From positions 320,001-384,000 of the forward strand of contig CAWCXJ010000006.1 in assembly GCA_963799485.1 (NCBI GenBank): a DNA stretch of 64,000 nt, given 5' to 3'. Shown one piece after another: positions 1 through 64,000 of this stretch. The notes below the pieces were generated by a model, which searched no databases, was not told the DNA's origin, and saw only the letters and a program-made list of their open reading frames with translations. The position numbers were made by a program, and so were the translations under genes. The DNA comes from an uncultured Trueperaceae bacterium (GTDB lineage Bacteria; Deinococcota; Deinococci; Deinococcales; Trueperaceae). Within the stretch, counting starts at the first letter, position 1. Each line of letters begins with the position of its first letter.

Positions 1-390
1 TCGCCACCGGGTTGATGGACGCGCAGCCCTTCTTCAACGATTTGAAACGCGGTGAGCCTGGGAGCTGTAGGGGTCTTGAAAGACGACCTGCAAATCGCTC
101 CGTAACCGCCGTAAATTGTCCCCGCGTAAATTTTGCAAATCGCGTCCGTCAAAGGTGATGCTGCCGCTTACGACCAGTTCAAGAAACGCCAACCCCAGTG
201 TCGTTTTCCCCGAACCCGATTCCCCGAGCGTGAAGGTAAAGACGACATCTTCGGCGGTAACCGGCTTACCGTCGTGCCACCGCGCTTCCGGGCGCAAATC
301 GAACTCGACCCAGGTGTTGGCTTGCGGAAAGCGAATCGTCTCGGCGAGAAGCCCGTACACCGAGAAGGGCTCGTCGCCGGACTGCACCAT
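1..390 (-). pseudogene. Chimeric remnant of a YejABEF-type peptide ABC operon (substrate-binding fragment fused to ATPase fragment)
   Basis: N-part DEPFSVYGLLAE...ARWHDGKPVTAEDVVFTF is family-5 SBP-like. It runs directly into Walker A GESGSGKT and QVVFQDPYSS. After a frameshift near 62 the ATPase continues as PRLTAFQIVEEGLRVHQPG to the window edge. Confidence 0.85.
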
Positions 391-543
391 CAGCTATGAG
401 GGTTTTCTTGCTTATTGTTCCAGGAGAGTTTATACAGCTCTAACCTCGGGCTCAGCTTATGTAGCGCAATTTAAGTTTACTTCTTTACACCACGTCGGCT
501 GAAGGGGAGAAGGGCGCTGTCTCTGACGGTAGAATAAGAGCTA

Positions 544-2370
544 ATGCAAGCGTCCGACCTGCCTGTTTTGCCCACGCAACCCGGTTGCTACTTGTTTCAC
601 GCCCCTGACGGTGAAGTGATTTACGTCGGCAAAGCCATCAACCTCAGAAGCCGGGTGCGGAGCTACTTTAGCGCCACCGCGCCGCAAAAAGCGCAGCTGA
701 CGAGCCAAAGGGCCGAGCGGCTCGAGTTCATCGTCACCAAATCCGAGGTCGAGGCGCTGATTCTCGAGTCCAACCTCATCAAACGCTACAAACCGCACTA
801 CAACGTGCTCTTGAAAGACGACAAGAGCTACCCTTTTTTGAAACTCACCAACGAAGCGTTTCCGATGCTCCTCTTTACGCGGCGCATCATCAAAGACGGC
901 GCAACGTACTTCGGGCCGTACCCGAACCCCGGTTCGGTCAGAAAGGTGCAAGAACTCGTCGGCTCGATTTTTCCGCTGCGGCAAAACAGCGGGGTGCCGT
1001 TGCAACGCCGTAAAAAACCGTGTTTACGCTTTCACATGGGCCGCTGCCTCGCGCCGTGTATAGGCAACGTAACGGTTGAAGAGTACGCGAAAGTGGTGCG
1101 GCAGGTCAAGACGTTTTTAGAGGGCGACGTGGCAGGGACCGCGGCGCAGTTGGACGCAGAGATGAAGGCGGCAGCGGGCCGTCAGGATTTCGAGTTGGCG
1201 ACCTTGTACCGCGACCGCTTGAACGCGCTCCAGCGGCTTACGGGTTATGACTCGGACGTGGCGAGGGCCTCAGACGACGACCTCGACTTTTTAGGCGTCG
1301 CGCAGGCCGGAAACTTTGCGATGGTGCAGCTTTTTCAGATGCGGCGCGGGCGGGTCGTCGGGCGCGACAAGCGGTTTTTGACCAACGCCGAAGGTGCGTC
1401 CGAGAGCGAGATCTTAGAGCGCTTCATGGCGGACTACTACGCCCAGGTGATGCAGGTGCCGCCCCTCATTCTGGTGCCGTCCGAACTCGACCTCGAGGTC
1501 TGGACAAAATTTTTATCCGAACGGGCCGGTAAACGCACCGAACTGCGGGTGCCGCAACGCGGCGACAAGCTCGAGCTGATGGGGATGGCCTCCCGCAACG
1601 CGACGACCGGGCTCGAGGCCGAACTCGCGCTCTTAGAAAGACGCGGTGAAGCTCCCGGCGTTCAGGAATTGCAGACCTTGGCAGAGCTTGAAACGGTTCC
1701 TTACCGTATCGAAGGCTTCGATATCTCGAACCTGATGGGGACGCATACGGTCGCCTCGGTTGTGGTCTTTGAAGGCGGGCGGGCGCGGCGTTCCGAATAC
1801 CGTAAACTGCGCGTCACGGGCCTCAGTCAACCCGACGATTTCTACTCGATGCACCAGGCGGTGTACCGGCGTTTTACGGGGTCTTTGGCAAACAAAATGC
1901 CGCTGCCCGACCTTTTACTGATCGATGGTGGTAAAGGTCAGCTGTCGGCGGCGCGGCGGGCGCTCAAAGACGCGGGGCTCGAGCTGCCGATGCTCGGTTT
2001 AGCCAAAAAACAAGAGACCATCATCCGTGAGGGTGCGCCGGAAATCCTCGTCCCGGAAACGCACCCGGCCCTGCGCCTACTCATCAACATCCGCGACGAG
2101 GCGCACCGCACCGCAGTTGGCTACAACCGCAAACAGCGCGGCGCAGCGATGACCCGGAGCTTGTTAGATGATGTGCCGGGTATCGGCCCGGCGCGTAGAG
2201 ACGCACTCTTGTCGCGGTTCTCGAGCCTCGGTGAACTCCGGGACGCCGAAGTCGATGACCTCGCCAAAATTCCCGGTATGGGCCGGAGCGCGGCTGAAGC
2301 GGTTAAAGAATTCCTAAGCGGCCTGGCTAACGAGCCCGCGCCTAACCCGGATGTACCAACCGCGACCTGA
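544..2370 (+). CDS. uvrC: Excinuclease ABC subunit C
   Basis: GIY-YIG N-terminus (PGCYLF...IYVGKAINLRSRV), RIEGFDISN, LLLIDGGKGQ, RDEAHR, C-terminal HhH. Confidence 0.98.
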   Translation: MQASDLPVLPTQPGCYLFHAPDGEVIYVGKAINLRSRVRSYFSATAPQKAQLTSQRAERLEFIVTKSEVEALILESNLIKRYKPHYNVLLKDDKSYPFLKLTNEAFPMLLFTRRIIKDGATYFGPYPNPGSVRKVQELVGSIFPLRQNSGVPLQRRKKPCLRFHMGRCLAPCIGNVTVEEYAKVVRQVKTFLEGDVAGTAAQLDAEMKAAAGRQDFELATLYRDRLNALQRLTGYDSDVARASDDDLDFLGVAQAGNFAMVQLFQMRRGRVVGRDKRFLTNAEGASESEILERFMADYYAQVMQVPPLILVPSELDLEVWTKFLSERAGKRTELRVPQRGDKLELMGMASRNATTGLEAELALLERRGEAPGVQELQTLAELETVPYRIEGFDISNLMGTHTVASVVVFEGGRARRSEYRKLRVTGLSQPDDFYSMHQAVYRRFTGSLANKMPLPDLLLIDGGKGQLSAARRALKDAGLELPMLGLAKKQETIIREGAPEILVPETHPALRLLINIRDEAHRTAVGYNRKQRGAAMTRSLLDDVPGIGPARRDALLSRFSSLGELRDAEVDDLAKIPGMGRSAAEAVKEFLSGLANEPAPNPDVPTAT

Positions 2371-2956
2371 CGCGCAGCGCCAGAAACGCTGCTACTGCGA
2401 GCCCGAGCAGCACCAGCACGACGACCTCGTAGGTTCCAAACAACTCCGCCAGCACGTGCCAGTTTTTCCCCAACAGCGTTCCGGCGTAGAGCCAAATTAC
2501 GTTCCACAGGGCTGTGCCGAGGGTGATGAAAAACGAAAAGCGCGCGAGCGGCATCGGTTTGATGCCGGCTGGAACCGAGATGAGGCTGCGAACGGTAGGA
2601 ATCATCCGGCTGAGGAGCAGCGCGGTATTTTCAAAACGGTCGAACAGCCCCAGCGTCCGCCCCAAATCGTGTTCGGAAACGAGTGCGAACCGTCCGTAAC
2701 GCCGTAAAAAACCCCGTACCCGCCGTTCACCGACCCATCTGGCTGCGCCGTAAATGGCAATTTGTCCGACGACCCCGCCGAACGTTCCGGCAAGCAGCGC
2801 GCCGACAAAACTCAACTCGCCCTGAGCGACCAAAAATCCGGCCAGCGGCATCACGAGTTCGGGTGCGGCGATGGTCATCACCAGGGCAATGCCGCCGTAA
2901 CCGAACGCACCGGTCAAGGCGGTAATGAAAGTCAAGAGGTTGGTCAGGCTGCCCAC
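2342..2956 (-). CDS. DedA family membrane protein
   Basis: PELVMPLAGF and RMIPTVRSLISVPAG motifs; hydrophobic. Confidence 0.92.
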   Translation of the reverse strand: MGSLTNLLTFITALTGAFGYGGIALVMTIAAPELVMPLAGFLVAQGELSFVGALLAGTFGGVVGQIAIYGAARWVGERRVRGFLRRYGRFALVSEHDLGRTLGLFDRFENTALLLSRMIPTVRSLISVPAGIKPMPLARFSFFITLGTALWNVIWLYAGTLLGKNWHVLAELFGTYEVVVLVLLGLAVAAFLALRVRSRLVHPG

Positions 2957-3055
2957 ACGTCATCTTAACGTGTAAGTTGTTTGCATTTTGTGTAGACGCG
3001 GTACAGGTTCTGCGCGCCGGTTTAGCTGCTTGGGCCAGCTGCCGGGGTCGGCTGC

Positions 3056-3640
3056 TCAGGGGCTGAGGTGTTCGGAAACGCTTTTGGCGGTGTGCTCGAG
3101 CCACGCCCAGCGCGTATATTCCATCTGCACGTCAACCCGTCCCCCACTCGTCAGCAACCTGCGCTTTTCGTGAAAGCCGACCTTTTTGAAGGCTGCCTGC
3201 GCGCGTTCGTTGTCACCGAAGGTGCTGAGTTTGACGCGCTCTAAGTCGAGCGTCCCGAACGCGTACTCTAAAAGTGCTTCAACCGCCTCCGGGCCGAACC
3301 CCCGGTTCCAGTGGCTCCGCTCCCCGATGATGATGCCCAGGGTCGCCTGGTCGTGCCGAATGTCGTAGAGTTCTATCGTCCCGATGTAGCTTGCTTCACC
3401 CCCCGCCGCTACCGCGGACGTGTCGAAAATCCCGTAAGTTTCGCGGTCGCTCCGGCGGCTGTCGGCGCGGAGTACCCGGCGGAGTAACCATAAGGGCATC
3501 CGGCTCGGGGGCGTCCCGTTGAGGTGCGCGATTTCTGGGTCGCGGAAGTGCGCGTGAACACGCCGCCACGCCGCATTGTCCAGCTCACCCAAGGGTTTAA
3601 GCACGACGCGTCCGCGCCTTAAAGGAGTCATCGAGGTCAT
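3056..3640 (-). CDS. GNAT (RimJ/RimL-like) N-acetyltransferase
   Basis: HWNRGFGPEAV acetyl-CoA motif and N.RA...FKKVGF; start placed at ATG 3640. Confidence 0.9.
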   Translation of the reverse strand: MTSMTPLRRGRVVLKPLGELDNAAWRRVHAHFRDPEIAHLNGTPPSRMPLWLLRRVLRADSRRSDRETYGIFDTSAVAAGGEASYIGTIELYDIRHDQATLGIIIGERSHWNRGFGPEAVEALLEYAFGTLDLERVKLSTFGDNERAQAAFKKVGFHEKRRLLTSGGRVDVQMEYTRWAWLEHTAKSVSEHLSP

Positions 3641-3784
3641 TTTATCGTTTTGCAGTGTACAACGTGGGTACCCTAACCCCTCATTCCGGGGTTTGGTTGC
3701 AGAAACCGACAAAGTCTTGTGAGCGCGCTTTTCGTCTACCTGGTGAGTCTTGACGACACTAGCCCTACTGTCCCCCTTCTTTCG

Positions 3785-3818
3785 GTTTGCAACCTTGCCG
3801 TAAACCCGATTTGCAAAC
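3785..3818. promoter_or_regulatory. Inverted repeat upstream of metal ABC operon (possible Fur/Zur-family site)
   Basis: GTTTGCAA (3785-3792) and TTGCAAAC (3811-3818) immediately upstream of a putative -10 and the SBP gene. Confidence 0.3.
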
Positions 3819-3850
3819 TGCCATGCTATTCTGACCAGGGGAGTTTTCTG

Positions 3851-4732
3851 ATGAAACGCACGTTGTCTCTGTTACTTTTACTCTGCGGTTTGGCGTGGGC
3901 GCAGCCGCTCAGCGTGGTCGTGTCCATGCAACCGCACTTCGCGCTGTTACAGCAGCTCGTCGGTGACGCTGACGTGGTGGTCACGCGCATTTTGCCACTC
4001 GGCGCGTCGCCGCACACGTTCGACCCGTCGCCGCGGGATGTGGCGCGTATCGCTGCAGCCGACTTGGTAGTCTTAAACGGAAGTATCGACGAATGGTTAC
4101 GTGACCTGGTTACCGCTGCGGATACGAACGTCGAGGTCGTGGAGCTGCTTGCGACACTCAAGTTCAAACCTATTACCGAAGATGCGGGCGAAGCTGAAAC
4201 CCTTGACGGCGGCGTCAACCCGCACATCTGGCTCGACCCGCTGCTGATGGCGCAGGCCGTGCCGGAACTTGCCGACGCGCTCGCCCGGGCCGACCCGAAC
4301 AGTGCCGAGCTTTACGCTGCCAACGCCCGGGTGCTGGTAGAAAACCTGAAAAAGCTAAATGTTGACCTCGAGCAAACCCTCGAGCCTGTTAAGGACGCGC
4401 CGTTCGTCCCCTTCCACGACGCCTGGCCGTACTTCGTGCGGCGTTACGGACTCAATCAGGTCGCGATCATCGAACCGGCACCGGGCCGTGAACCGAACCC
4501 GGGCTACCTCGCCGAGGTGCTGGCACAGATTGAAACAACCGGCGCACCGGCAATTTTTAACGACGCGCAACTCCCTGCACGTCCGGCTGAAATCATCGCG
4601 GCGTCGGCGGGCATTGCGCTCTATACCCTCGACCCCGAAGGCGGCGGGGCAGGTGAAGATGAAAGCTATGAAGCGCTTATGCGGCGTAACGCAGACACCA
4701 TCGCCGAAGCCCTGGCCCCGTCGTCACCGTAA
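3851..4732 (+). CDS. znuA: Zn/Mn ABC transporter substrate-binding protein (ZnuA/TroA family)
   Basis: Signal peptide MKRTLSLLLLL; SPHTF, NPHIWLDP and FHDAW metal-ligand motifs. Confidence 0.9.
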   Translation: MKRTLSLLLLLCGLAWAQPLSVVVSMQPHFALLQQLVGDADVVVTRILPLGASPHTFDPSPRDVARIAAADLVVLNGSIDEWLRDLVTAADTNVEVVELLATLKFKPITEDAGEAETLDGGVNPHIWLDPLLMAQAVPELADALARADPNSAELYAANARVLVENLKKLNVDLEQTLEPVKDAPFVPFHDAWPYFVRRYGLNQVAIIEPAPGREPNPGYLAEVLAQIETTGAPAIFNDAQLPARPAEIIAASAGIALYTLDPEGGGAGEDESYEALMRRNADTIAEALAPSSP

Positions 4733-4846
4733 AGTGCCGCTGATACCGACTTTGCACCTAGAGACGCGTTGAGCATAGCAACGTCCGGGGTGTGTTCCTG
4801 CTTGACGACACGGCCCCCGACAAGTTCCGGCGTAAACTGACAAGCT

Positions 4847-14598: not shown

Positions 14599-14688
14599 CT
14601 GTGCCGCAAAACACTGTGCCGCAAAACACTGTGCCGCAAAACACTGTGCCGTAAAAACCCATGCCACAAAAATCTGTGCCGTAAAATC
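14599..14688. repeat. 15-bp tandem repeat, 6 copies (3 perfect, 3 degenerate)
   Basis: CTGTGCCGCAAAACA x3, then CTGTGCCGTAAAAAC, CCATGCCACAAAAAT, CTGTGCCGTAAAATC. Confidence 0.95.
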
Positions 14689-14708: not shown

Positions 14709-17225
14709 TTAAATGGGCTGCGGCTGGTCGCGTACAGTTTCAAACTTTACGGCGGGGTCGGTTTCCGGTGAGTTGATAAACGGCGAAAACCGCTTGCGAA
14801 CTTCGGGGTCGTGCAGGGCGTTTTGCCATTCGCACGCGTAGGTGCCTACGACGTGCGCCATCTCCGCCTCGAGCTGCTGCGCAATGTTGAGCTTGTCTTC
14901 AACCACCACTTCGTAGACTTTTGCCAGCCCACCCGGAAGCTTGCCCAGCCAGGTGGCGGTGCGCTCGAGCCTGTCCGCCGTCCGCACGTAGTACATCAAA
15001 AAGCGGTCGATGGTGCGAATCAAGGTCTCTTTGTCCAAATCTCCGGCGAGCAACACCGCGTGCTGCGGCTTCATCCCGCCGTTGCCGCACACGTAGAGGT
15101 TCCAGCCCTTTTCGGTGGCGATGATGCCGACGTCTTTGCCTTGCGCCTCGGCGCACTCGCGCGCGCAGCCTGAGACGCCCATCTTGATTTTGTGCGGGGA
15201 GCGCAGCCCCTTGTACCGATTTTCGATTTCAATCGCTAAAGCCGTCGAATCCTGCACCCCGTAACGGCACCATGACAGGCCGACGCACGATTTTACGGTG
15301 CGCAACGACTTGGCGTAAGCGTGACCGGACTCGAGGCCGACTGCCGCCAGCTCCTCCCAGATGTCCGGCAAATCTTCACGCCGCGCTCCGAAGAGATCGA
15401 TACGCTGCCCACCCGTAATTTTGGTGTAGAGGTTGTAGCGCTGCGCCACCTGACCCATCGCCACGAGCTGCTCGGGTTTGATTTCGCCGCCGGGTACGCG
15501 CGGCACCACCGAATACGAGCCGTTTTTCTGGATGTTTGCCATAAACGCGTCGTTGGTGTCTTGAATCGTCGGGAGTTCCGTCACCGGGTCGTTGTGGACG
15601 CTCGCCAAAACCGAAGCGACGGCAGGTTTGCACACTTCGCAGCCCAAGCCCTGACCGTGCGTTTCCAGCAAACTTTCAAAGGTGCGGACGCCGGTCGTCT
15701 GGACGATTTCAAAAAGTTCCTGGCGGGTATAGGCGAAGTGTTCACACAGCGAACGGTCTACCGCGACGCCCAAGCGGGTTAGCTCGAGTTCCAGCACATC
15801 TTTGACGAGCGGTACGCACGAGCCGCAACAGGTTCCGGCTTTGGTGCAGCTTTTGAGCCCCGCCACGTCCTGTACGCCGTCCTGCACCGCTAAAGCGAGC
15901 GTCCCTTTCGAGACGTTTTCGCATGAGCAAATCGTCGCCGTATCCGGTAGCGCCGCGACGCCCGCGCCCACCGCTTCACCCGTTTGGGCGACGAGCAAGC
16001 TTTCCGGCGCGTCGGGCAGGGGCAGTTTGTTGAGATAAAGCTGGAGCAGGTTGCTGTAGTCGCTCGCGTCGCCGACCAGCACCGCGCCCCGTAACGTATT
16101 GTCCGGGCCGACCAGAAGCTTTTTGTAGGTTCCGGCTCGAGCGTTCATGACGAGCGTTTCCTCGAGGGTCTCGTCGTCCGAAACCGCGTCGCCAATCGAG
16201 GCCACGTCTACGCCCTGAAGCTTGAGTTTGGTAGACATATCGGCCCCGGTAAAGGTTGCGTCTCGGCCCAGCAAACCTTCGACGAGCGCCTCCGCCATCC
16301 GGTAGCCGGGTGCGACGAGCCCGTAGGTGAGGCCGCCGACATGGGCGCATTCGCCGACGGCGTAGATGTCGGGGTCGGAGGTCTGAAGATACGCGTCCAC
16401 GGTGACCCCGCCGCGTGAACCGACCGCGAGCCCCGCCGCTCTCGCCAACTCGTCACGCGGCGCAATCCCTGCCGAAATCAGCACCAAATCCGTATTCAGC
16501 GTTTCGCCGTCTTCAAAGGTAAGCCCCGTAACTTTTTCTGCGCCTGACATCTCCCGAGTCCGTTTACCGAGGTGAATGTGTAAGCCTAGAGCCTCGAGTT
16601 TTTTCTTCACTAGCAGTGCACCTTTGTCGTCGAGCTGACGCGGCATCAGTCGGGAAGATGACTGCACGACGTGGGTCTCGAGCCCCATATCGTGGAGGGC
16701 TTTAGCAGCCTCGAGCCCCAGCAACCCGCCGCCAATCACCGTAGCCGTGCGGCACGTTTTGCTGTGAGCAATAAGCGCGTCCAAATCTTCAATGGTTCGG
16801 TAGACGAACACCCCGGCTTTATCCACGCCCGGAACCGGCGGGACGAAGGCCGCCGAACCCGTTGCCAGGACAAGTTTATCGTAAGAGAGCGTTTTTCCCT
16901 GCCGGGTCGTGACGGCTTTGGCTTTACGGTCAATCGCACTTACCCCGTCACCTAAATGCAGCGTCACACCGTTTTCTTCAAACCAGGCGAGGGGAGAAAG
17001 CTCGAGCGCTCCCGCATCCTGCGCCGTAAAATACCGGTTCAGGTTTACCCGGTCGTAAGCGTGGCGCGGTTCTTCGGCAAACGCGGTGACGTGATAGCGC
17101 CCTTCGGTATCCCCGGCAGCGAGCGCAGTCAGGACTTTTTGCCCGACCATCCCGTTACCGACAACGATTAATTTTTGCTGTTCGGGAGGCTGTGCCTGAA
17201 CCTCGGGGCGATAGTCTAAACTCAT
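14709..17225 (-). CDS. nirB: NAD(P)H nitrite reductase large subunit
   Basis: VVGNGMVG, GGGLLGLE, BFD-like CSC...CGSC, siroheme motifs KSCVG..WCRYG and SGCARECAE. Confidence 0.97.
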   Translation of the reverse strand: MSLDYRPEVQAQPPEQQKLIVVGNGMVGQKVLTALAAGDTEGRYHVTAFAEEPRHAYDRVNLNRYFTAQDAGALELSPLAWFEENGVTLHLGDGVSAIDRKAKAVTTRQGKTLSYDKLVLATGSAAFVPPVPGVDKAGVFVYRTIEDLDALIAHSKTCRTATVIGGGLLGLEAAKALHDMGLETHVVQSSSRLMPRQLDDKGALLVKKKLEALGLHIHLGKRTREMSGAEKVTGLTFEDGETLNTDLVLISAGIAPRDELARAAGLAVGSRGGVTVDAYLQTSDPDIYAVGECAHVGGLTYGLVAPGYRMAEALVEGLLGRDATFTGADMSTKLKLQGVDVASIGDAVSDDETLEETLVMNARAGTYKKLLVGPDNTLRGAVLVGDASDYSNLLQLYLNKLPLPDAPESLLVAQTGEAVGAGVAALPDTATICSCENVSKGTLALAVQDGVQDVAGLKSCTKAGTCCGSCVPLVKDVLELELTRLGVAVDRSLCEHFAYTRQELFEIVQTTGVRTFESLLETHGQGLGCEVCKPAVASVLASVHNDPVTELPTIQDTNDAFMANIQKNGSYSVVPRVPGGEIKPEQLVAMGQVAQRYNLYTKITGGQRIDLFGARREDLPDIWEELAAVGLESGHAYAKSLRTVKSCVGLSWCRYGVQDSTALAIEIENRYKGLRSPHKIKMGVSGCARECAEAQGKDVGIIATEKGWNLYVCGNGGMKPQHAVLLAGDLDKETLIRTIDRFLMYYVRTADRLERTATWLGKLPGGLAKVYEVVVEDKLNIAQQLEAEMAHVVGTYACEWQNALHDPEVRKRFSPFINSPETDPAVKFETVRDQPQPI

Positions 17226-17318
17226 GTGAACTCCTACAAAAGAACAGTTGAAAGGCGTTAGGCTACGGCGTTCTCGAGACCCCATAGCCTGAAAATTGGT
17301 GCTGCAGATTAGTGCTGC

Positions 17319-50193: not shown

Positions 50194-51189
50194 TCATTCA
50201 TCTTGCCGCGTCCGTTGCAGCAGCACCGCCGCGATGATGATGACGCCCTGCACCGCGCCGTTTAGGTACTCGCTGATAAAGCCGGTGAGGTTTAGGACGT
50301 TGCCGATGGTCGAGAGCATCACAGCCCCGACGACCGTGCCCCAGATGTGCCCCGAACCGCCCTTGAGGGCCGTACCGCCGATGATCACGGCGGCGATGGC
50401 CTCGAGTTCCCACAACACCCCGGTACTTGCCGAGGCCGAACCGAGACGCGGCACGTAAATGATCGTCGCCAGCGAGACGCAGAGCCCCTGCAAGACGTAG
50501 GTCAGGGTTTGGATCCGGTCAACGCGAATCGCCGAGTAACGGGCGACGCGTTCACTCGAGCCGATCGCGTAAACGTAGCGCCCGAAACGCGTCCGGTGGA
50601 GGATCACGCTGCCAACAACAGCAACCGCTGCAAACACCCAGATTGGATACGGCACCCCCAAAAACGACCCCGAATAGACCGGCCCGTAAACGCTTCTGAC
50701 CTCGAAGTCGAGCGACAAGGTGCCGCCGTTGGCAAAGTAGGTGACAAGCGAACGGTAGATGCCGAGCGTCCCGAGCGTGACGATAAACGCCGCGATTTTG
50801 CCCCGTGTAATAATGATGCCGTTGATAAACCCCGCCGCAAGCCCCAGCAAGAGCGACGCCGCAACGCCGATTAAAACCGTCACGACGCCTGCCCCAAACG
50901 TATCGACGGCCCGGTTCATCACGATAATCATCACGCCCGCGATAAACGCCGCCATCGACCCGACCGACAGGTCTAAACCGCCGGAGATAATCACAAACGT
51001 CGCGCCGACCGCGATAATGCCGATAAACGCGCTTCTCGTCAGGACGTTAAAGAGGTTGATCGGCGACAAAAAGGCGTCGTTTAGGAGCGCGCCGACGACA
51101 AAGAGCACAATCAGTCCGAGCAGCGGCCCGAGCGTGCGAAGGTCGAAACGTGGCCCGCGCGCTGCGGGTATAACGGGTTCAGGCTGCAT
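50194..51189 (-). CDS. Sugar ABC permease
   Basis: [22 protein letters not shown]. Confidence 0.92.
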
Positions 51190-52687
51190 CGAGGGTTCCT
51201 TTTTGACCGGGGTCGGCACGTTTTAGGCCGGTGGCGTAACGGTTAATTTCCTGTTCGTTGACGTCGCCTTCCGTCAGGATGCCCATCTGCTCGCCCGAGC
51301 GCATGATTACCACGCGGTGGCAGAGCCCGACGATTTCAGGGAGTTCGGACGAGATGAGGATGACCGACTTACCCTGCTCCAGCAGTTCTTGAATAAAAAA
51401 GTAAATCTGCCGCTTCGTGCCGACGTCGATACCGCGCGTGGGTTCGTCCAGGATCAAAATCTCGGGTGAGACTTCCATCGTTTTTGCCAGCACCAGCTTT
51501 TGCTGATTGCCGCCCGAAAGGACGCCGACTTTAGCGTTCAAATTCGGCACGCGGATGCTGAAGTCTTTTACGGCCTGCCTCAGCGCCGCCACCTCACGTT
51601 TTCGGTGAATAAAGGGGTCGGCGTATTTTTTAAGCGCCAAAAGCGTCAGGTTGGGCCGTAAAACCATCTCTGTAATCAGTCCCTTGCCTTTACGGTCTTC
51701 GCTCACATAGGCGAGACCGGCTTTTACGGCGTCGCTCAGCGTATGAACCGTAAGCGGCTCACCATGCCGTAAAAGGGTTCCCGTTTTTGGTCGCAAGCCG
51801 AGGATGCCCTCGAGCACCTCCGTCCGCCCCGCCCCGACGAGTCCGGCAAAGCCCAGCACCTCGCCGCGCCGAAGCTCGAACGAGATATCTTCGGCCCAAC
51901 CCGGCACCGAGATGTTTTGCGCCGTAAAAACCACTTCGGTTCCCGGCACACGTTTGGGCGGGTACATGTCGGAGAGTTCACGCCCGACCATCAGGTTCGC
52001 CATCTCGTCTTGACTCAGTTCGGCGGTAGGTTGGGTCGTGATGAGCTTGCCGTCGCGGAGGATACTCACACAGTCGGCAATCGCGGAGATTTCCTCCAAC
52101 TTGTGCGAAATATAAACCACCGCCACACCCTGTTTTTTCAGGCGGCGGATGAGTCCAAATAAAACTTCGGTCTCGCGCCCGGTCAACACGTCGGTGGGTT
52201 CGTCCATCAGCAAGACGCGCACGTCGCGGGTCACGGCTTTGGCGATTTCGACCATCTGCTTTTGCGAGACGCTTAAAGAACCGACTTTACGGCGCGGGTC
52301 GACGTCGGTCTCGAGGCTTCTCAACACCGCAGCGGCCTCCTGCTGCATTTTACGGTGCTGCAAAAACGGCCCGCTGCGTTTTTCAATGCCCAAAAAGATA
52401 TTCGCCTCGGCGCTGAGGTCGTCGGCCAGGTTGATCTCCTGGTGGATGAGCACGACGCCCTGCGCTTCGGCGTCGCGGGAGCGCCGGAACGTCACGGGTT
52501 GACCGTCTAAAGTCAGCGTTCCGCCGGTCGGTTGCAGGTAGCCCGACAAAAGTTTCATCAAGGTGGATTTGCCCGCGCCGTTTTCACCTAGAATCGCGTG
52601 GACTTCGCCTTCTTTTAAGCTGAGCGAAATGTCGTCTAAGACCCGCACCGGGCCGAAGTTTTTAGAAAGGTGGCGGGCCGCCAACAT
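51179..52687 (-). CDS. Sugar ABC ATPase (RbsA-like, two domains)
   Basis: [24 protein letters not shown]. Confidence 0.94.
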
Positions 52688-57560: not shown

Positions 57561-58898
57561 CTAGCTCTCGCGGCGCAATATCCGGCCCCAGGTCGGGGAT
57601 AGCTCGAGCCCACCCCCTGAAACCGTTTCACCGGGATTTAACAGGTCTGTCCAGGTGTTGCCTGCTACCGGTAGCTCGAGCGTCACAGCTTCGCGGCTCG
57701 CGTTGACGGCAACCAAAACCGCCTCGTTTTGCCAGCTGCGGGAAAACACGAACTGCTCCGAAGTTACAAGCTGCTCGCGGTAATCACCACACCTGAGCGC
57801 CGGTAAGGTGTGGCGCAGTTTGATGAGTCTCTGAACAACCCCGTAAAGATGGGGATGCCGGCCCGCACTGCCCAGCATTTCAGGCGTAAGCGGCGGGCGG
57901 AGCGGGGCGTCGCTTGCCGGGGCCTTTTCGCCCGTTACGCCCCACTCGCTGCCGTAGTACAACGACGGTACACCGGGCACCGTCAAGAGCAGGATGTGAA
58001 GCGGATAGAGGTGCGCGGATTCGTGTAAAAGGCTGGCGACGCGGGGCACGTCGTGGTTGTCGGCGAAGGTGTAAAGCGGCAGCTCGCGGTAGATTCCGCC
58101 CGCGCCGAACTGTCGTTTGAGCGTGTGGGCCAGCTCGAAGTAGTTGCGGTCGTTGTGGCTCGAGTAGAGCCCTTTGTGCAGCTCGTAGTTCGTCGTTGCG
58201 TCGAGCTTGCCGGAACCGGCCCACTCCCGGTAGTCGCCGTGAATGACCTCACCCAAAAGCCAGCAGTCCGGTTTAACTTTACGGCAGACTTCAGCCAAGT
58301 CGTGCTGAAACTCCAAATCGAGCACGTCCGCTGCGTCGAGCCGTAAACCGTCGGCGTCAAAGGCTTGCAGCCACAGCCGCGCCGCCGTAAAAAGATGCTC
58401 ACGTACCGCCGGGTTTGCGGTATTGAGTTTTACGAGGTCGAAGTGCCCGTTCCAGCCCTCGTAACCGAACAGGTCGCCGGCGGGGCTCTGCGCCGTAAAA
58501 TCGAGAAAAAACCAGTCGCAATAGGGACTCGCTGCGCCGCGCTCCTGCACATCCCGGAACGCCCAGAAGTCGCGTCCGACGTGGTGAAATACGGCGTCGA
58601 GCATTACCTTCAAACCGCGTGCGTGACACGCCGTGATCAACGCCTTCAGGTCGTCGTTGGTACCGAGCCGCCGGTCTACCGTAAAGAGCTCGGCGGTGTC
58701 GTACCCGTGGCTGCCGGACTCGAGCACCGGCCCGAGCAGCAGCGTATTGACGCCCAACTCGCCCAGGTAAGGCAACCAGCCGTGCAACTTGCTTAAGCGG
58801 TCACTCGGCTCGCCCGTAAAGTCGTTACGCTCCGGTGCGCCCGTGCTGCCGAGGGGGAAGAGGTGATAGATAACTGCGCCTTGTGCCCAATGATTCAT
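57561..58898 (-). CDS. GH13 alpha-amylase/cyclomaltodextrinase-like enzyme
   Basis: HGYDT, DAVFHH, DGLRLDAA, GEVIH, DNHD. Confidence 0.94.
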   Translation of the reverse strand: MNHWAQGAVIYHLFPLGSTGAPERNDFTGEPSDRLSKLHGWLPYLGELGVNTLLLGPVLESGSHGYDTAELFTVDRRLGTNDDLKALITACHARGLKVMLDAVFHHVGRDFWAFRDVQERGAASPYCDWFFLDFTAQSPAGDLFGYEGWNGHFDLVKLNTANPAVREHLFTAARLWLQAFDADGLRLDAADVLDLEFQHDLAEVCRKVKPDCWLLGEVIHGDYREWAGSGKLDATTNYELHKGLYSSHNDRNYFELAHTLKRQFGAGGIYRELPLYTFADNHDVPRVASLLHESAHLYPLHILLLTVPGVPSLYYGSEWGVTGEKAPASDAPLRPPLTPEMLGSAGRHPHLYGVVQRLIKLRHTLPALRCGDYREQLVTSEQFVFSRSWQNEAVLVAVNASREAVTLELPVAGNTWTDLLNPGETVSGGGLELSPTWGRILRRES

Positions 58899-58968: not shown

Positions 58969-59535
58969 TTAAGAGTAGATGCCGTAGCTGAACTGTTTGA
59001 CGATGTCGTACTTGAGGGTGTCGTCGGGGGTAATTTCGCCGGAAAGAACGAGTCCCGAGTAGGTGTTGACCAACCCGACGAAACTTACGGCGTAGCGGCG
59101 GGCGCGGCCCCGCATGTTGCCGTGGTCGCGGCTTGCGGCCTCAAACAAGTTTTCGACAAGCTCACGCTGCTTACGCCCTAACGGACGCGCCAAGCGGTAC
59201 GACCGGCTTTCCGGCGGGGCTACGGCGCACGCCGATAGCAGGTGGTAAAAGCTCGTTTGCGCCGTAGCAAAGGCCAGATACGCCTCGACGATGGCGAGCA
59301 GGTTGCGGGTCAGGTCGCCTTGATAACAGGTCGCGGCCTCGAGCTTCGTCAAAAGGGGCTTAGCGTCACGGGTGATAAGCGCCCCGAGTACACCCTCCTT
59401 GTTGCCGAAATGATGGTAGAGCGTGGGTTTGGTGACGCCCGCAGCCGCAACGAGTTCTTGCACGCCCACCGCGTCGTAACCGCGCGCAGAGAACAGCCCC
59501 AAGGCGTGGGTGAGGATAAGGTCGGGTGTATCCAC
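58969..59535 (-). CDS. TetR/AcrR family regulator
   Basis: GYDAVGVQELVAAAGVTKPTLYHHFGNKE; start placed at GTG 59535. Confidence 0.92.
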   Translation of the reverse strand: MDTPDLILTHALGLFSARGYDAVGVQELVAAAGVTKPTLYHHFGNKEGVLGALITRDAKPLLTKLEAATCYQGDLTRNLLAIVEAYLAFATAQTSFYHLLSACAVAPPESRSYRLARPLGRKQRELVENLFEAASRDHGNMRGRARRYAVSFVGLVNTYSGLVLSGEITPDDTLKYDIVKQFSYGIYS

Positions 59536-59575
59536 AGCTATACCGAACGGTAGTATACCAGACGGTATAGCTGTG
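59533..59575. promoter_or_regulatory. Tandem TetR operators inside a longer inverted repeat
   Basis: TACCGAACGGTA 59541-59552 and TACCAGACGGTA 59556-59567, flanked by CACAGCTATACCG...CGGTATAGCTGTG. Confidence 0.75.
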
Positions 59576-59641
59576 TCAAGATATCTCGAGGTGTACAAGC
59601 CGGTTCGTATTTGGTGGCGACCGAGCTTTGCCGCACGAGGC

Positions 59642-60322
59642 TCAGGGTAGCCGAGAAATGACGGCTGAAGCGGTGCGCGTGGGACGGCTCAACCGTTTTC
59701 GGATAAGCCATTCGGCGACGGCGAGGTTAATCACCCAACCTGCACCCATCGCCAGCGCCCTTGTCGGCTCTCCCAGGAGTGTCGGAAAAAACAGTAGCGG
59801 CAGATGCGTCAGGACTTGCGTACCTGCGCCCATGCCGATAGCGTAGGCGCGAATCATCCAGGCACCGTGCCGGGAAAAGTCTCGCCGCCGAATGGCAGCA
59901 ACACCGAGGAGAAGGGATAAGAGCATCGCCGACCCGAACACGAGCCGCAAAATGTATAAAACCTCACCGTCATACTTGGGCCAGGGATAAAACCGGGCCA
60001 TCCACAAGCCTGAAAGTGCCGCGATAAGCCCGCACGGAATCAGGAGCCGCCCGGCTGCGCGGTGCCAACCCGGTCGCCGACGGCGAAAACCGGGGACGAA
60101 CTGAAACGCACCCAAAACGGCGTACACGCTGACGCTGACGATGTGCAGTACCACAGGCAAAGGCGACGCGAAAAACCGGGCGTTGTCCGCTGTGACTTCT
60201 GCGCCGCTACTCAGTTCGGTAAGGCGAAAGGCACCGGCGGCGACCGGAACGGCGCTGAGCAAAAGCAGCGCAGCGGGGATAAGCCACTCCCCTATAGACT
60301 TCGTTTTTACATCCGGATTCAT
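59642..60322 (-). CDS. DUF2306 family membrane protein
   Basis: LHI, WHR..GR, HGAWMIRAYA. Confidence 0.85.
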   Translation of the reverse strand: MNPDVKTKSIGEWLIPAALLLLSAVPVAAGAFRLTELSSGAEVTADNARFFASPLPVVLHIVSVSVYAVLGAFQFVPGFRRRRPGWHRAAGRLLIPCGLIAALSGLWMARFYPWPKYDGEVLYILRLVFGSAMLLSLLLGVAAIRRRDFSRHGAWMIRAYAIGMGAGTQVLTHLPLLFFPTLLGEPTRALAMGAGWVINLAVAEWLIRKRLSRPTRTASAVISRLP

Positions 60323-60361
60323 TTGCAGCCCTCCTTTAAGGGTGGTTCGGTGTTGCCTGGT

Positions 60362-60589
60362 TCAACCGGCGTCTTCTCCCAGGTCGAAAGAAAAAACGTC
60401 TTCCAGCGGTGTATTAAAAACGTGGGCGATACGAAACGCGACTTCCAAAGAAGGTGAATACTTCGCCTTTTCGATGGCGACGATGGTCTGCCTCGTTACG
60501 CCTACCCTGTCGGCGAGTTCTTTTTGGGTCATTTCGTTGTGGTGAAAACGCAACGTTCGGATGTTGTTGCTGATGGGACTTTTGCCCAC
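60362..60589 (-). CDS. Small XRE/Cro HTH regulator
   Basis: NNIRTLR, MTQKELADRVGVTRQTIVAIEK..YSPSLEVAFRIA. Confidence 0.93.
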   Translation of the reverse strand: MGKSPISNNIRTLRFHHNEMTQKELADRVGVTRQTIVAIEKAKYSPSLEVAFRIAHVFNTPLEDVFSFDLGEDAG

Positions 60590-60590
60590 C

Positions 60591-61046
60591 TCAGAAGCCC
60601 TTCTGATAGAGCAGCAATCTGCTTGCGTCGCCGATAATCTGTGCCAGGATGCCGAAAAAGATGAGCAGGCTGAACATCACCAAAGGCGGTTGCCCGAGGA
60701 CAAAACTCAGCATGGCGAGAAACACCCCGAGTGAGGACGCAGTATATGTGACCTGTGTTCCCCGTAAACCGATGAGCTTGTCCCTTTCGTCCTCGAGGTC
60801 TTCGATTTCCGGGTTCTCGTTGCCTGTTCTAAACGCCTGGACGATGGCGGAGGCGATGTGCGTAAGAATCGTAGCAAGAATTGTGACGACGACGGCGAGG
60901 ACAATAACGATTCCCCAGAGGCGAAAAACGCTGGTCGGGGTGAAGGTGTCGTTTTGAACCAGCTGAACTATCCTGAAGAGGTAAAAGCTCAGGATCAAAA
61001 CGAAGTTGACCAAGGATACGGTGATGTTTTTCTGCTGAAAAGACAT
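60591..61046 (-). CDS. Hypothetical membrane protein typical of XRE-paired operons
   Basis: TM helices and DERDKLI motif; start at ATG 61046. Confidence 0.8.
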   Translation of the reverse strand: MSFQQKNITVSLVNFVLILSFYLFRIVQLVQNDTFTPTSVFRLWGIVIVLAVVVTILATILTHIASAIVQAFRTGNENPEIEDLEDERDKLIGLRGTQVTYTASSLGVFLAMLSFVLGQPPLVMFSLLIFFGILAQIIGDASRLLLYQKGF

Positions 61047-61098
61047 TTTTCCCTCTTTCTGTTGATCGGTAGCTCGAGTCAAATAAAGCGTCCATATA

Positions 61099-61135
61099 GT
61101 AAACAATTTTATACCCTGTGTCAAATATCTTTTAC
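61099..61135. promoter_or_regulatory. Paired operator candidates for the XRE operon
   Basis: GTAAACAATTTTATAC and GTCAAATATCTTTTAC, 21-bp period. Confidence 0.5.
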
Positions 61136-61223
61136 TTAAGCTGCCCAAAAGTAAGCCGTTTGTTTTGGCTGGCGTGTTCAGCAACAGTACTGATTTGAGC
61201 GCTCAAATAATCGAGACTTGCCT

Positions 61224-61742
61224 CTAGGTGGAAATCCGTTTAGGCAAACGAGCTAGAAATAGCTCTACTTCCTGAACACGCTGTAAATGGATGATCTGTT
61301 TACCCTCGAGCCCTCTCAACTTCTCCAAAATCACCGGTCGCCGCACCTTCGGATACTCCCAAACGAACCGTAAAAACTCGCCCGTCAGCCGCTCCGGGCA
61401 GCCCTCGGTCATATCGGGCCGTGAGCGGTTGTGATACCGAAGCCGACGCTTAAAGACACGCCACAAGCAGCGCAACCGAGGTAAGTCAAGAAAGATTACG
61501 GTGTCGGCAGCTGCCAAGCGCACATCCATCGTCGAGCCGTAGTTGCCGTCAACAATCCAGCAGTCTTGCGCTAGAAAGCTGCTTTGACGTTTCAGCCACT
61601 GGTCGTGAGGCGCTTCAGTCCAGCCTGTGTTCCAGTAAAGCCGGTCTAAATGGATGACGGGAAGTCCGGTTCGCTCGCCCAGTGCACGGGCCAGTGTCGT
61701 TTTGCCAGCCCCGCCCGACCCGATAATTGCCACGCGCTTCAC
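61224..61742 (-). CDS. FlaR-like P-loop protein (topology modulation protein family)
   Basis: IIGSGGAGKTT, HLD, WIVDGNY, RPDMTEGCPE. Confidence 0.9.
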   Translation of the reverse strand: MKRVAIIGSGGAGKTTLARALGERTGLPVIHLDRLYWNTGWTEAPHDQWLKRQSSFLAQDCWIVDGNYGSTMDVRLAAADTVIFLDLPRLRCLWRVFKRRLRYHNRSRPDMTEGCPERLTGEFLRFVWEYPKVRRPVILEKLRGLEGKQIIHLQRVQEVELFLARLPKRIST

Positions 61743-62695
61743 GCTAAATCGAGGCGCTGACCCAGGCCCGTTTCAAGCGCCCCCTGATACACCGTCCACG
61801 CTACCGCCAAATCCATCCACGCCAGACCGACCCCGCCGTAAACGGTCAGTTCGTCACCGAGCCGCCCCGGAACCTGTCCGCTTAACACCTCGCCGAGTTC
61901 ACCGGTAATGGCGTCTTCATTTAGTCCGACACTGCCGATAGTGCCGTCCCTGACCGCCAAGTCCTTGTTATCGCAAAAAAAGCGGCTCGTTAACACCAAA
62001 TCCGCCGATACCTCGGCCTTGCCCGGTTCATCCGCGCCGAGCGTCGTGACGTGTGCGCCGCCGCGTAAAAACTCGGGGTAGAGAAAGGGCTCCCTCGCCC
62101 ACGTTGCCGTAACGATGATGTCGGCGTCGGCGACGGCTTCAGTGAGCGAGTCCGCCGGAACGAGCTTCGCGTCCGTTTTTGCTGCCAGCCGCCGGACGAA
62201 GGGGCCGGTTTTAAGCGGCACGATGTCAAAGACCGTAACGGTGTGGAGCTGCCGGACATAGGTGAGCAGCTCGAGCTGCCACGCGTTTTGTACCCCTGCG
62301 CCAATAAGGGCGACGTGACTCGAGTTTTTCCGGGCAAGTGTGTCGGCGGCGACCGCGCCCGCCGCCGCCGTTCGCAGCGCCGTAAGGTGTCCTGAACCTA
62401 AAACCGCCAGCAGCTCGCCCGTATGAATATCGAAGAGCTGAATCAAGCCACGAATAGCGGGTTTGCTGTCCGGAAACTCCGCGTGAACGTTGACGGTATA
62501 GGCCGGAACATCGGGGAGCAGGCCGGGGAAAAGGACAGTCGCCGAAGCGCCGTTTTGCGGGAGCCCGGGGCGGGCGCGTTGCGGAGCGATACCGGCACCC
62601 GAAGATGCGACAAAACCTTTACGGACGGCTTCAAAAAGGGGGAGGGGCTCCAACAACCTCACCACGTCCGCGTGGGTTAAAAGCAAGATAGACAT
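61739..62695 (-). CDS. Ornithine cyclodeaminase/mu-crystallin family protein
   Basis: LTALRTAAAG, IGAGVQ, LGADEPGKAE, GVGLAWMD. Confidence 0.9.
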   Translation of the reverse strand: MSILLLTHADVVRLLEPLPLFEAVRKGFVASSGAGIAPQRARPGLPQNGASATVLFPGLLPDVPAYTVNVHAEFPDSKPAIRGLIQLFDIHTGELLAVLGSGHLTALRTAAAGAVAADTLARKNSSHVALIGAGVQNAWQLELLTYVRQLHTVTVFDIVPLKTGPFVRRLAAKTDAKLVPADSLTEAVADADIIVTATWAREPFLYPEFLRGGAHVTTLGADEPGKAEVSADLVLTSRFFCDNKDLAVRDGTIGSVGLNEDAITGELGEVLSGQVPGRLGDELTVYGGVGLAWMDLAVAWTVYQGALETGLGQRLDLA

Positions 62696-62698
62696 ACG

Positions 62699-63997
62699 CT
62701 AACCCTGCCAGCCTTGAACCGTCGCGTAGTGCCGCAGCGCAGCCTCGGCGTCCCCTTTTGTCCGAACATCCCCGACAGCCTCGGCCTCTTGTACAAACCG
62801 CACGGCTTCACCGACGCGCGGCCCCGGCGAGAGGTCTAGGAGTTCCATCACCTCGAGCCCGTTCAAAAGTGGCGCTTTAGGCGGCGCTTCGTCCATGATC
62901 TCCAAAACGCGGGCCAACGCCAGCTTGTACCCCCGGCGGCTCGCCTTGGACGACAGCGGCCCACGCGCCGCCTCACGGTCGGCGATCATCAGTTTGAGCA
63001 GATCGGGTAAGAGGTTGCGGCGGCGGTGGACGAAGCGGCGGGCTTCCTTGTCGGACTTGGGGAGCTGCACCATATGGTAGCGGACGAGCCCCGCGGCCTT
63101 GTCTATCCGCGCCGCAGGTGTGCGGAGCCTTTCCAAAATCGTCCGGGTCAGCTCAGCCCCGAGTTTATCGTGCCCGTAAAAGTGATAGTGGCTGCTGCCC
63201 GCTTCATACGTTTTCGTCGCCGGTTTGCCGACGTCGTGCAAGAGTGTCGCCCAGCGGAGCGTAAGGTCGGCATCGGGAAAACCCTGCACGAGTTGATGGA
63301 GCGCCTCGAGCGAATGCTCCAGCACGTCCAGATGATGAAAGCCGCCCTGCGTGACGCCGCCCGCGTCGGCGAGTTCGGGCAGGTAGACCCGTAAAAGTCC
63401 GACCTGATGTAAAAGCTTGAAGCCCGGTGCCGCGTTTTCACTCAGCAAAAGCTGCGTGAGTTCGTCGCCGACACGCTCCCAGGCCGGAAGGGGAGTCTCG
63501 GCGTTTTGCCGTGTTGCGTGACGTTGAACGGCTGCCTTGGTGTTAGCCTCGAGTCCAAATCCAAGCGTCGCTGCAAATCTCACGCCCCTCAAGCCACGCA
63601 CCGGGTCGGCCCGCAAGTTCGCCTCACTAACCATTCGTAACCGCTTGGCCCGCAAATCCGCCCGCCCGCCGGTCGGGTCGATAAGCTTTCCTGAAAGGTC
63701 GGCGGCGAGGGCGTTTAAGGTGTAGTCTCGAGCCCGTAAGTTAGGTTCCAGACCTCTCTCCAAATCCTCGAGCGGGGTGTAGTCTCGAGTTATATTTTCG
63801 GTGACGACGCGCCAGTGGTCTCGCTGTTCGTCTAGGCAAAACGCGCGACCGCCGAGTTTTACGGCGGCTCGGTCGGCCTCGAGCCTCGGTTTCCCAACCA
63901 ACCAGTCTAAATCTCGCACCGGACGCCCTAAAAGTGTATCTCTCACCGCCCCGCCGACGAGATACCCGTGACCTGGGTGCGGCGTAAACTGAGCCAT
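62699..63997 (-). CDS. Class II tRNA nucleotidyltransferase with HD domain
   Basis: LVGGAVRD...DLD, RDYTLNA, DPTGG..DL, DP.R.LR, LLHDVGK. Confidence 0.92.
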   Translation of the reverse strand: MAQFTPHPGHGYLVGGAVRDTLLGRPVRDLDWLVGKPRLEADRAAVKLGGRAFCLDEQRDHWRVVTENITRDYTPLEDLERGLEPNLRARDYTLNALAADLSGKLIDPTGGRADLRAKRLRMVSEANLRADPVRGLRGVRFAATLGFGLEANTKAAVQRHATRQNAETPLPAWERVGDELTQLLLSENAAPGFKLLHQVGLLRVYLPELADAGGVTQGGFHHLDVLEHSLEALHQLVQGFPDADLTLRWATLLHDVGKPATKTYEAGSSHYHFYGHDKLGAELTRTILERLRTPAARIDKAAGLVRYHMVQLPKSDKEARRFVHRRRNLLPDLLKLMIADREAARGPLSSKASRRGYKLALARVLEIMDEAPPKAPLLNGLEVMELLDLSPGPRVGEAVRFVQEAEAVGDVRTKGDAEAALRHYATVQGWQG

Positions 63998-64000
63998 GTC

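Follow-up and report, generated by a model that had tools for sequence, protein, structure and literature searches.

What keeps a short, non-palindromic word at nearly one copy per kilobase along a bacterial chromosome? The question is raised by a 64-kb stretch of DNA from an uncultured Trueperaceae bacterium (the window), in which the heptamer CCGTAAA, or its complement TTTACGG, recurs from end to end. The window corresponds to C6:320001-384000 of the source genome, G000, an assembly of 3,655,195 bp in 15 contigs with 57-60% G+C that is rated 4.63% contaminated. Throughout, the word denotes CCGTAAA/TTTACGG counted on both strands. It is a lineage-specific chromosomal word with a graded extended form, cgCCGTAAAa, and is tentatively read here as resembling an uptake signal.

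Abundance and anatomy of the word

Within the window the word occurs 91 times (56 on the plus strand, 35 on the minus strand), against 9.88 copies expected from dinucleotide-preserving shuffles (standard deviation 3.07); none of 100 shuffles attains this count, and their maximum is 17. Eighty of the 91 copies lie entirely within gene calls and 11 do not, in agreement with a preliminary description of the window that placed the word on either strand and in genic as well as intergenic DNA. All seven sites named there are present (Table 1), and its estimate of about 0.3 sites per 3.8 kb from base composition is correct, the genome-wide equivalent being 331 copies in 3.655 Mb. The same description held that the word is usually preceded by G. 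This is indeed the commonest preceding base, but its share barely makes a majority, at 43 of 91 copies in the window and 54% genome-wide. The 43 copies extend to GCCGTAAA, 27 copies to CGCCGTAAA and 12 to the full 10-mer CGCCGTAAAA.

The excess continues across the genome, where 3,274 copies are distributed almost evenly between the strands (1,667 plus, 1,607 minus; 0.90 per kb). Beyond the expectation from base composition, Markov models of orders 1, 2 and 3 predict 553, 725 and 961 copies, respectively. The 10-mer CGCCGTAAAA is the commonest 10-mer of the genome, with 540 copies against an order-3 expectation of 55, and the 9-mer form reaches 0.30 per kb. Relative to base composition, the excess amounts to 91-fold for the 10-mer, 39-fold for the 9-mer and 18-fold for the 8-mer.

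Coding sequence does not account for these numbers. Genes were called with a crude open reading frame (ORF) and codon-usage caller of our own, giving 3,231 genes that cover 84% of the genome; the frames of these calls are considered sound because 80% of the copies of a second word, CTCGAG, in coding sequences (CDS) fall in the Leu-Glu frame. The CDS copies of CCGTAAA number 2,663, compared with 722 ± 18 (maximum 749) under a first null that shuffles synonymous codons within each gene (n=10), a 3.7-fold excess. A second null, which permutes third positions with amino acids and every dinucleotide preserved (n=10), predicts 1,148 ± 22 (maximum 1,181), leaving a 2.3-fold excess; a run with three replicates agreed. 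The 10-mer exceeds the first null 12-fold and the second 4.5-fold. Once codon usage is corrected for, only the CTCGAG family stands above the word family, which comes second or third in the ranking of all 7- to 10-mers.

All five stop-free reading frames contribute, the sixth holding a stop codon. Against the first null, the frame T-TTA-CGG holds 501 copies for 27 expected (18.7-fold; 3.6-fold over the second null), CC-GTA-AA 530 for 75 (7.1-fold; 3.6-fold), C-CGT-AAA 396 for 98 (4.0-fold; 3.0-fold), TT-TAC-GG 672 for 207 (3.2-fold; 1.7-fold) and TTT-ACG-G 564 for 316 (1.8-fold; 1.7-fold). The strongest of them thus contains TTA, yet this is only a 7% codon. Short spacers between called genes (1,333 of 30-250 bp, together 151 kb) hold 197 copies where 30 dinucleotide shuffles give 29.4 ± 4.0 and a maximum of 37, a 6.7-fold excess, and the density is 1.30 per kb, compared with 0.87 in CDS. 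The excess therefore persists when amino acids and codon usage are held, is spread over all open frames and extends into spacers, which establishes CCGTAAA as an iterated word of the genome at the level of DNA, as the preliminary description proposed, rather than a by-product of coding.

The anatomy of the word is compact. Under a maximal-order model, each added letter still brings a gain (CCGTA 1.43, CGTAA 1.32, CCGTAA 1.33, CCGTAAA 1.18, CCGTAAAA 1.17), so that the dependency reaches at least 8 bp. Information in the flanks is confined to positions -2 (C, 0.50), -1 (G, 0.54) and +7 (A, 0.47), and from -15 to +21 the flanks are otherwise flat, indicating that the word stands alone and does not belong to a longer repeat. 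When one letter of the 10-mer is changed within its seven-position core, the resulting variants mostly lie at 0.4-1.5 times expectation, a few being higher, compared with 12-fold for the perfect form; variants at the three outer positions retain a 2- to 12-fold excess, and replacement of the T leaves about 3-fold. For the 7-mer, one-mismatch neighbours range genome-wide from 0.64 to 2.24 of the order-3 expectation, and none of them is depleted enough to represent a converted precursor, the lowest standing at 0.64-0.68. None of the frequent 12- and 14-mers of the genome includes the word. A dispersed repeat of the repetitive extragenic palindromic or miniature inverted-repeat transposable element type is ruled out by the flat flanks to ±15 bp, by the location of 81% of copies in CDS and by this lack of any long-mer.

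The placement of the word shows little relation to genes or replication. Spacer density is alike between convergent (1.37 per kb), divergent (1.42) and tandem genes (1.16-1.20), and neither orientation prevails upstream or downstream of genes; together with the lack of surplus inverted pairs, this rules out a promoter or terminator element. Within genes, copies are spread evenly along the length, at densities of 0.71 per kb in the least codon-biased fifth of genes, 0.73 in the most biased fifth and 0.91-1.01 in between. Word orientation tracks gene orientation (-0.38), as expected with three antisense but only two sense frames open, and shows no link with GC skew (Spearman -0.14, p=0.10). A strand skew relative to the replication origin, suggested as a check in the preliminary description, is absent: on contig C8, where the GC skew is steadily positive, the net word skew is -4, and the two sides of dnaA on C7 differ in the word only as gene orientation predicts, in an assembly of 15 contigs whose replichores are only partly known.

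CTCGAG is an abundant word of its own, with 14,504 copies in the genome against 4,448 expected (order 3), 132 of them in the window, and 3,510 copies of GCTCGAGC. In each of its three frames it surpasses synonymous shuffles (3.4-, 8.1- and 3.9-fold); it encodes 53% of Leu-Glu dipeptides, reaches 642 copies in short spacers for 73 expected and, at 0.4-3.5 per kb, recurs in two phage contigs of the assembly and in Trueperaceae loci whose G+C spans 39-75%. It looks like a family-wide palindrome of the HIP1 (highly iterated palindrome 1) kind. A composite element of the two words is ruled out, as no spacing between them is preferred. Other palindromes are avoided: GGCGCC, CGGCCG, CCGCGG, CGTACG, TCGCGA and GGWCC stand at 0.07-0.2 of expectation in G000 and its relative G005, less strongly reduced in the relative G001 and near expectation in G002, a pattern that points to long exposure of the clade to several restriction systems. 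CCGTAAA itself is rejected as a restriction-modification target, since it is in excess whereas the avoided palindromes are depleted to those levels. Codon usage in G000 is odd for 59% G+C, with TTT favoured over TTC (0.61), AAA over AAG (0.60) and AA/TT at odds of 1.39.

Relatives, site history and phage contigs

The survey covers 112 family genomes at least 80% complete, including the unpublished G097 (one unremarkable row), with the reversed word as control. The 10-mer exceeds 100 copies in only three of them: G000 (540; control 24), G005 (435; control 17) and G001 (196; control 34). The next-highest genomes of the family hold 60, 57, 49 and 46 copies with controls of 19-30, and in the other three congeners the counts are 16-25 (controls 5-17). 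Measured on samples of 400 kb, the 7-mer exceeds its order-3 expectation 3.9-fold in G000, 3.3-fold in G005, 1.9-fold in G001 and 1.6-fold in G002. No substitute over-represented word, or dialect, is found in G001 or G002; CCGTAGA, which G002 shows most often where it differs at G000 sites (23 of 148), reaches only a 1.3-fold excess in that genome. The three enriched genomes form one clade with a support of 1.000 (6,801 aligned columns), G003 being the next branch. They are 83-84% identical to one another, where species representatives are 74-84% identical, and a single metagenome scan returned nothing nearer than about 82.5% nucleotide identity.

The history of individual sites was followed by aligning 200-244 kb of each relative to G000, with neighbouring 7-mers in the same codon phase as controls. 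In G005, 112 of 240 G000 sites are kept (47%), compared with 260 of 917 controls (28%; Fisher p=1.6e-7), and the conservation S is 0.467 against a control-word mean of 0.300, which ranks 25th of 414 7-mers of the same G+C (13th of 414 by Jaccard). In G002, conservation lies below control (12 of 148 against 79 of 553; S=0.081 against 0.145). In the reverse direction, 112 of 215 sites of G005, 51 of 101 of G001 and 12 of 22 of G002 are kept in G000, over baselines of 29%, 25% and 16%. Orthologous positions in the relatives differ by single substitutions, and this, combined with the uninformative flanks, indicates that the word arises by point change and not by copying. Amino-acid identity at the word codons equals that of the flanks (0.853/0.856 in G005, 0.832/0.850 in G001, 0.764/0.788 in G002). 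The word has thus been fitted into proteins mostly without changing them, and the same equality argues against consensus errors.

Two contigs, C2 (88 kb) and C3 (52.6 kb), carry the word at only 0.25-0.27 per kb, compared with 0.84-1.10 on the large contigs. Among the 36 of their 144 proteins that were scanned are terminase, portal, major head and tape-measure proteins, a serine integrase, a repressor, replication proteins and a DNA methyltransferase, and both contigs are therefore taken to be phage or prophage. C2 additionally encodes two transposases. The two contigs copy the palindrome avoidance of the host (GGCGCC 0 against 193 expected, CGGCCG 0.04, GGWCC 0.10) and its excess of CTCGAG (5.97-fold against 5.9-fold on the chromosome, order-1 expectation); the excess of the word is only 1.7-fold against 6.1-fold on the chromosome. 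A 20-kb island on C4, with 64-67% G+C, contains 57 copies of the avoided palindromes and none of CCGTAAA, and is probably recently acquired or mis-binned DNA. The near-freedom of the phage contigs and the island from the word suggests that the process that builds it has shaped the native chromosome but has not, or not so far, reached them.

What could read or maintain the word

The DNA-level excess, the anatomy, the restriction to one clade, the retention of some sites and the near-absence from phage DNA coincide with the properties that Redfield et al. (PMC1626085) give as shared by the uptake signal sequence (USS; AAGTGCGGT, ACAAGCGGT) of Pasteurellaceae and the DNA uptake sequence (DUS; GCCGTCTGAA and its dialects) of Neisseriaceae, and for this reason an uptake reading is placed first. 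With a probability of roughly 0.3, CCGTAAA would be an uptake-signal-like word built by transformation-linked drive, uptake being the presumed reading process. Point substitutions, at thousands of sites with no relation to one another, gave rise to the word, and it would be held above neutral turnover by a process that recognises 7 to 10 bp of duplex DNA and takes no account of genes. If the uptake or transformation machinery prefers the word, fragments bearing it would enter and recombine more often, and repeated biased entry would drive it into the chromosome over time (molecular drive), the mechanism known for USS and DUS. In its boldest and equally tentative form, this reading would make CGCCGTAAAA a Deinococcota uptake or self-recognition signal, dating from the stem of one small Truepera clade, whose drive into the chromosome, though not into phages, would be continuing.

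The passages of PMC1626085 that characterise USS and DUS describe about one copy per kb, no significant orientation bias, a preference for non-coding DNA alongside many coding copies, and presence in some relatives; perfect copies far exceed singly mismatched ones, spacing is more regular than random and some copies form close inverted pairs. By criteria taken from PMC1626085 and PMC3630211, the word matches USS and DUS in its density of about one per kb, its lack of orientation bias, its higher frequency in non-coding DNA, its thousands of coding copies in several frames, its origin by point mutation, its rank as commonest 10-mer, its sharing by close relatives and its scarcity in phages. The seven clear USS genomes in Table 2 of that source show an excess of 181-429-fold for the 10-mer, 68-175-fold for the 9-mer and 26-63-fold for the 8-mer, and the remnants in H. 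ducreyi are put there at 21-31-fold (PMC1626085); the word lies below the former and above the latter. The preliminary description had noted that the Neisseria DUS also begins with GCCGT. This holds in the portion of PMC3630211 that gives the sequence, but a likeness of five letters is no evidence of relationship, and the CTG core of the DUS dialects is missing from CCGTAAA.

A number of observations weigh against an uptake signal. Three of the listed properties fail, namely the strong consensus, the close inverted pairs and the regular spacing. Perfect copies are in the minority: the 9-mer has 1,113 of them and 3,809 with a single mismatch, the 10-mer 540 and 1,845. Gaps between copies are clumped and not regular (coefficient of variation 1.33; 74 gaps above 5 kb for 29 expected; variance-to-mean ratio of 2.4 in 10-kb bins), and neighbours within 50 bp are on the same strand in 135 cases and on opposite strands in 78, with no excess of inverted pairs; the same-strand neighbours show small peaks at 12, 21 and 30 bp. 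The core, at 7 bp, is shorter than that of USS and DUS, and by the base-composition measure confirmed USS exceed expectation two to five times more strongly. Retention of sites is uneven as well: the rank in G005 is only moderate, and G001 shows no excess in conservation (51 of 200 against 174 of 763, p=0.45; S=0.255 against 0.250, rank 172 of 369). Site conservation alone cannot in any case separate selection from a biased conversion process. To our knowledge, sequence-specific DNA uptake has no precedent in Deinococcota. The phylum also differs from that of the described systems, since uptake sequences, according to the relevant passages of PMC1626085, are known from two proteobacterial families and none outside them.

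The gene content adds to these reservations. ComEC and DprA are each present in all five genus genomes searched (G000, G001, G002, G003 and G005), so that congeners lacking the word have the competence genes just as well, and no candidate for an uptake receptor turned up, although no search was aimed at receptors. The enriched genomes are assembled in 8-15 contigs and the unenriched congeners in 1, 380 and 550; with two of the three unenriched assemblies fragmented in this way, sequencing technology is confounded with clade. Finally, the contrast with phage DNA could alternatively reflect short residence time or mis-binning.

A possible but doubtful alternative is that the word is the binding or recognition site of an abundant DNA-binding protein or DNA-processing machine, maintained by weak selection at each site. 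Candidates are a nucleoid-associated protein, as proposed for HIP1, and an unpolarised Chi-like signal for an AddA/RecB-like helicase-nuclease. The sharp, non-palindromic core of 7 bp, in which variants fall so far below the perfect form, suits such a site, as do the retention of sites above control and the near-absence from phage contigs. HIP1 (GCGATCGC) of cyanobacteria offers a parallel: it is over-represented 15- to 300-fold (PMC5861425), and Xu, Lawrence and Durand argue, in sections 8 and 18 of that paper, that the conservation of its orthologous sites above controls is evidence of selection. CCGTAAA resembles HIP1 as a hyper-abundant short word that occupies all frames and spacers, survives codon-aware nulls and varies between lineages; at orthologous sites its conservation stands above control words toward G005 but not toward G001 or G002. 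It differs from HIP1 in being non-palindromic, and no methyltransferase is found to track it. The HIP-like palindrome of G000 is CTCGAG/GCTCGAGC which, unlike the word, is also abundant in the phage contigs.

Chi sites are non-palindromic words of 5 to 8 nt, few-fold over-represented, lineage-specific, poor in phages and strongly polar. The word shares with them its length, its lack of a palindrome, its few-fold excess, its restriction to one lineage and its rarity in phage DNA, and the excess of E. coli Chi is modest, as is the 3.7-fold codon-corrected excess here. G000 encodes a 952-aa protein with a UvrD helicase and a PD-(D/E)XK nuclease of AddA/RecB type, preceded by a 772-aa ORF that overlaps its start. 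The best NCBIfam models for the 952-aa protein, AddA and RecB, score 141-159 bits, far under cut-offs of about 700, and the 772-aa ORF matches no family over cut-off, with sub-threshold P-loop matches only; from their sequences, the pair may form a divergent two-subunit end-processing enzyme. Against a Chi-like role stand the lack of replication polarity, a composition that is not G-rich, the failure to find RecC (PF04257) in any of the 31 relatives searched, and the wide distribution of the AddA-like gene, which extends to congeners without the word. The clumped spacing does not favour a binding site in general, and no candidate protein tracks the enrichment: among Vsr, the Type IIG enzyme and Type III Mod described below, ComEC, DprA and the AddA-like gene, none follows the word across genomes.

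A neutral origin, in which a methylation- or repair-linked ratchet of the kind that Elhai proposed for HIP1, or another context-dependent mutation bias, produces the word without any function of its own, appears unlikely. Sculpting of short words is nonetheless strong in these genomes: six GC palindromes and GGWCC stand at 0.07-0.2 of expectation, and CTCGAG is enriched 3- to 8-fold in every frame. The enrichment of the word is graded over three species (3.9-, 3.3- and 1.9-fold), about half of its sites are not common to G000 and G005, and its density peaks where constraint is lowest (the spacers, at 1.30 per kb) and drops from about 1.0 to 0.73 per kb where codon bias is greatest. The link between highly iterated words and methyltransferases, as the part of PMC4390886 that sets out the Elhai model draws it, has a potential counterpart in G000, which encodes enzymes of Type IIG and Type III with non-palindromic sites. 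The first is a 979-aa member of the MmeI family that occurs in G000 only, with no orthologue found in congeners and best relatives of 49% identity in other families; judged by its sequence, it was probably acquired recently. The second, the Type III Mod, belongs to a row of genes (Table 1) and has an orthologue in G001 that is split by a stop codon, none being found in G005 with this query. Neither of these two methyltransferases tracks the word, and Vsr is found in none of the five genus genomes searched. Even the most depleted neighbouring words fall short by only about 150 sites each, compared with an excess of about 2,300. The phage contigs depend on the host for replication and bear its CTCGAG and avoidance signatures, yet not that of the word.

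A side effect of composition, of codon or codon-pair usage, of compensation for CGTACG-type avoidance or of long-read consensus error is very improbable: AA/TT and A-runs are favoured (odds 1.39), CGTACG avoidance and word enrichment increase together over four genomes, all three enriched genomes have few contigs while two of three unenriched congeners are fragmented, and the gain per letter at maximal order is only 1.05-1.43-fold, but 2,663 copies remain against 1,148 ± 22 under the strictest shuffle, on both strands, in all stop-free frames and in spacers, conditional gains persist to 8-mers with no depleted precursor word, correction for CGTACG would, from the bases that follow CCGTA, alter CCGTAA by only about a tenth, and the word codons equal their flanks in amino-acid identity in genomes that form one fully supported clade.

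The operator of the deinococcal radiation/desiccation response motif (RDRM) has a half-site similar to CGTAA but, as a promoter-restricted 17-bp palindrome with tens of sites, is rejected. The section of PMC8533742 that maps it places it in promoters of radiation-induced genes, with 41 chromatin immunoprecipitation peaks. No description of the word was found in the main texts of published papers, in line with the preliminary description, whose author knew of none. No paper was found to combine Truepera with 'uptake sequence', and nothing relevant to over-represented oligonucleotides or uptake signals of Deinococcus is among the matches listed. Judged by titles and the beginnings of abstracts, the strings of the word appear in four papers, three on plant telomeres or telomerase and one on a human cancer microRNA.

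Features of the window and meaning of the word

The individual sites and the genes and contigs referred to above are collected in Table 1. Public reads, from three runs of one study, contain at most 0.15 of the sampled words, in Logan contigs of 150-420 nt at a depth of 2-6. In these sparse pieces, site 61368 is covered with 0 differences, and sites 58278, 58341 and 58385 are covered by one piece with 2 differences.

A tandem array lies downstream of a NirB-type gene, and of its units three contain GCCGCAAAA, two GCCGTAAAA and one GCCACAAAA. The preliminary description spoke of a nirB-nirD repeat built from variants of the word, which is partly right; the array and the NirB-type gene are both present, but the name nirD is not confirmed, and the 126-aa ORF on the other side of the array has no Pfam match at E<=1e-4. 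The array is missing from the orthologous spacers of G005 and G001 and is therefore regarded as a recent local expansion.

Table 1. Coordinates of word copies, clusters, genes and contigs discussed in the text; positions without a contig name refer to the window.
Feature	Position	Strand	Details
Word copy	109..115	+	CCGTAAC and GCGTAAA variants at most 30 bp away
Word copy in UvrC gene	1008..1014	+	Frame C-CGT-AAA (Arg-Lys), inside conserved peptide KPCLRFHM
Word copy in UvrC gene	1800..1806	+	Named in the preliminary description
Word copy in UvrC gene	1873..1879	-	TTTACGG orientation
Word copy	2702..2708	+	GCCGTAAAAA; CCGTAAC precedes
Word copy	2748..2754	+	CGCCGTAAA
Word copy	3798..3804	+	About 45 bp ahead of ATG at 3851; apparently intergenic
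Tandem array	14599..14686	+	15-bp unit, 5.9 units, consensus CTGTGCCGCAAAACA; between NirB gene and 126-aa ORF
NirB-type gene	14709-17285	-	Pfam Pyr_redox_2, NIR_SIR, Fer2_BFD
Densest mixed-orientation cluster	51567..51928	51567-, 51656+, 51689-, 51723-, 51767+, 51922+	6 copies in 362 bp, within ORF 51179-52687 (-)
Cluster	58278..58820	58278-, 58341+, 58385+, 58493+, 58679+, 58814+	6 copies in 543 bp, within ORF 57561-58898 (-)
Phage or prophage contig	C2:1-87954
Phage or prophage contig	C3:1-52597
Type III row	C4:~98,700-110,600		WYL regulator, Type III Res (1,076 aa), Type III Mod (1,084 aa), DrmD-like SNF2 helicase (966 aa)
Island without the word	C4:220-240 kb
MmeI-family Type IIG enzyme	C5:165411-168347		N-terminal, helicase-spacer, methyltransferase and target recognition domains
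dnaA	C7:179444-179929
AddA/RecB-type protein and upstream ORF	C7:196019-201071 (952-aa protein at 198213-201071)

Few kinds of iterated words are understood, namely USS and DUS, Chi and the FtsK-orienting polar sequences (KOPS), and HIP1 has remained unexplained after decades. CCGTAAA provides a clean new case in another phylum, young enough to be limited to three of 112 family genomes and accompanied by sister species and phages without the word, a natural setting in which to look for its protein reader and to test drive against selection and repair bias. The presence of two words with different distributions, CCGTAAA and CTCGAG, makes two forces comparable in one cell. If the word is only a by-product of repair, neutral sculpting with a specificity of 7 to 10 bp can override codon preference, as in TTA-CGG at 19 times expectation. 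In conclusion, if the uptake reading is true, the clade would possess a third uptake-sequence system, one that evolved independently and is still early and weak.

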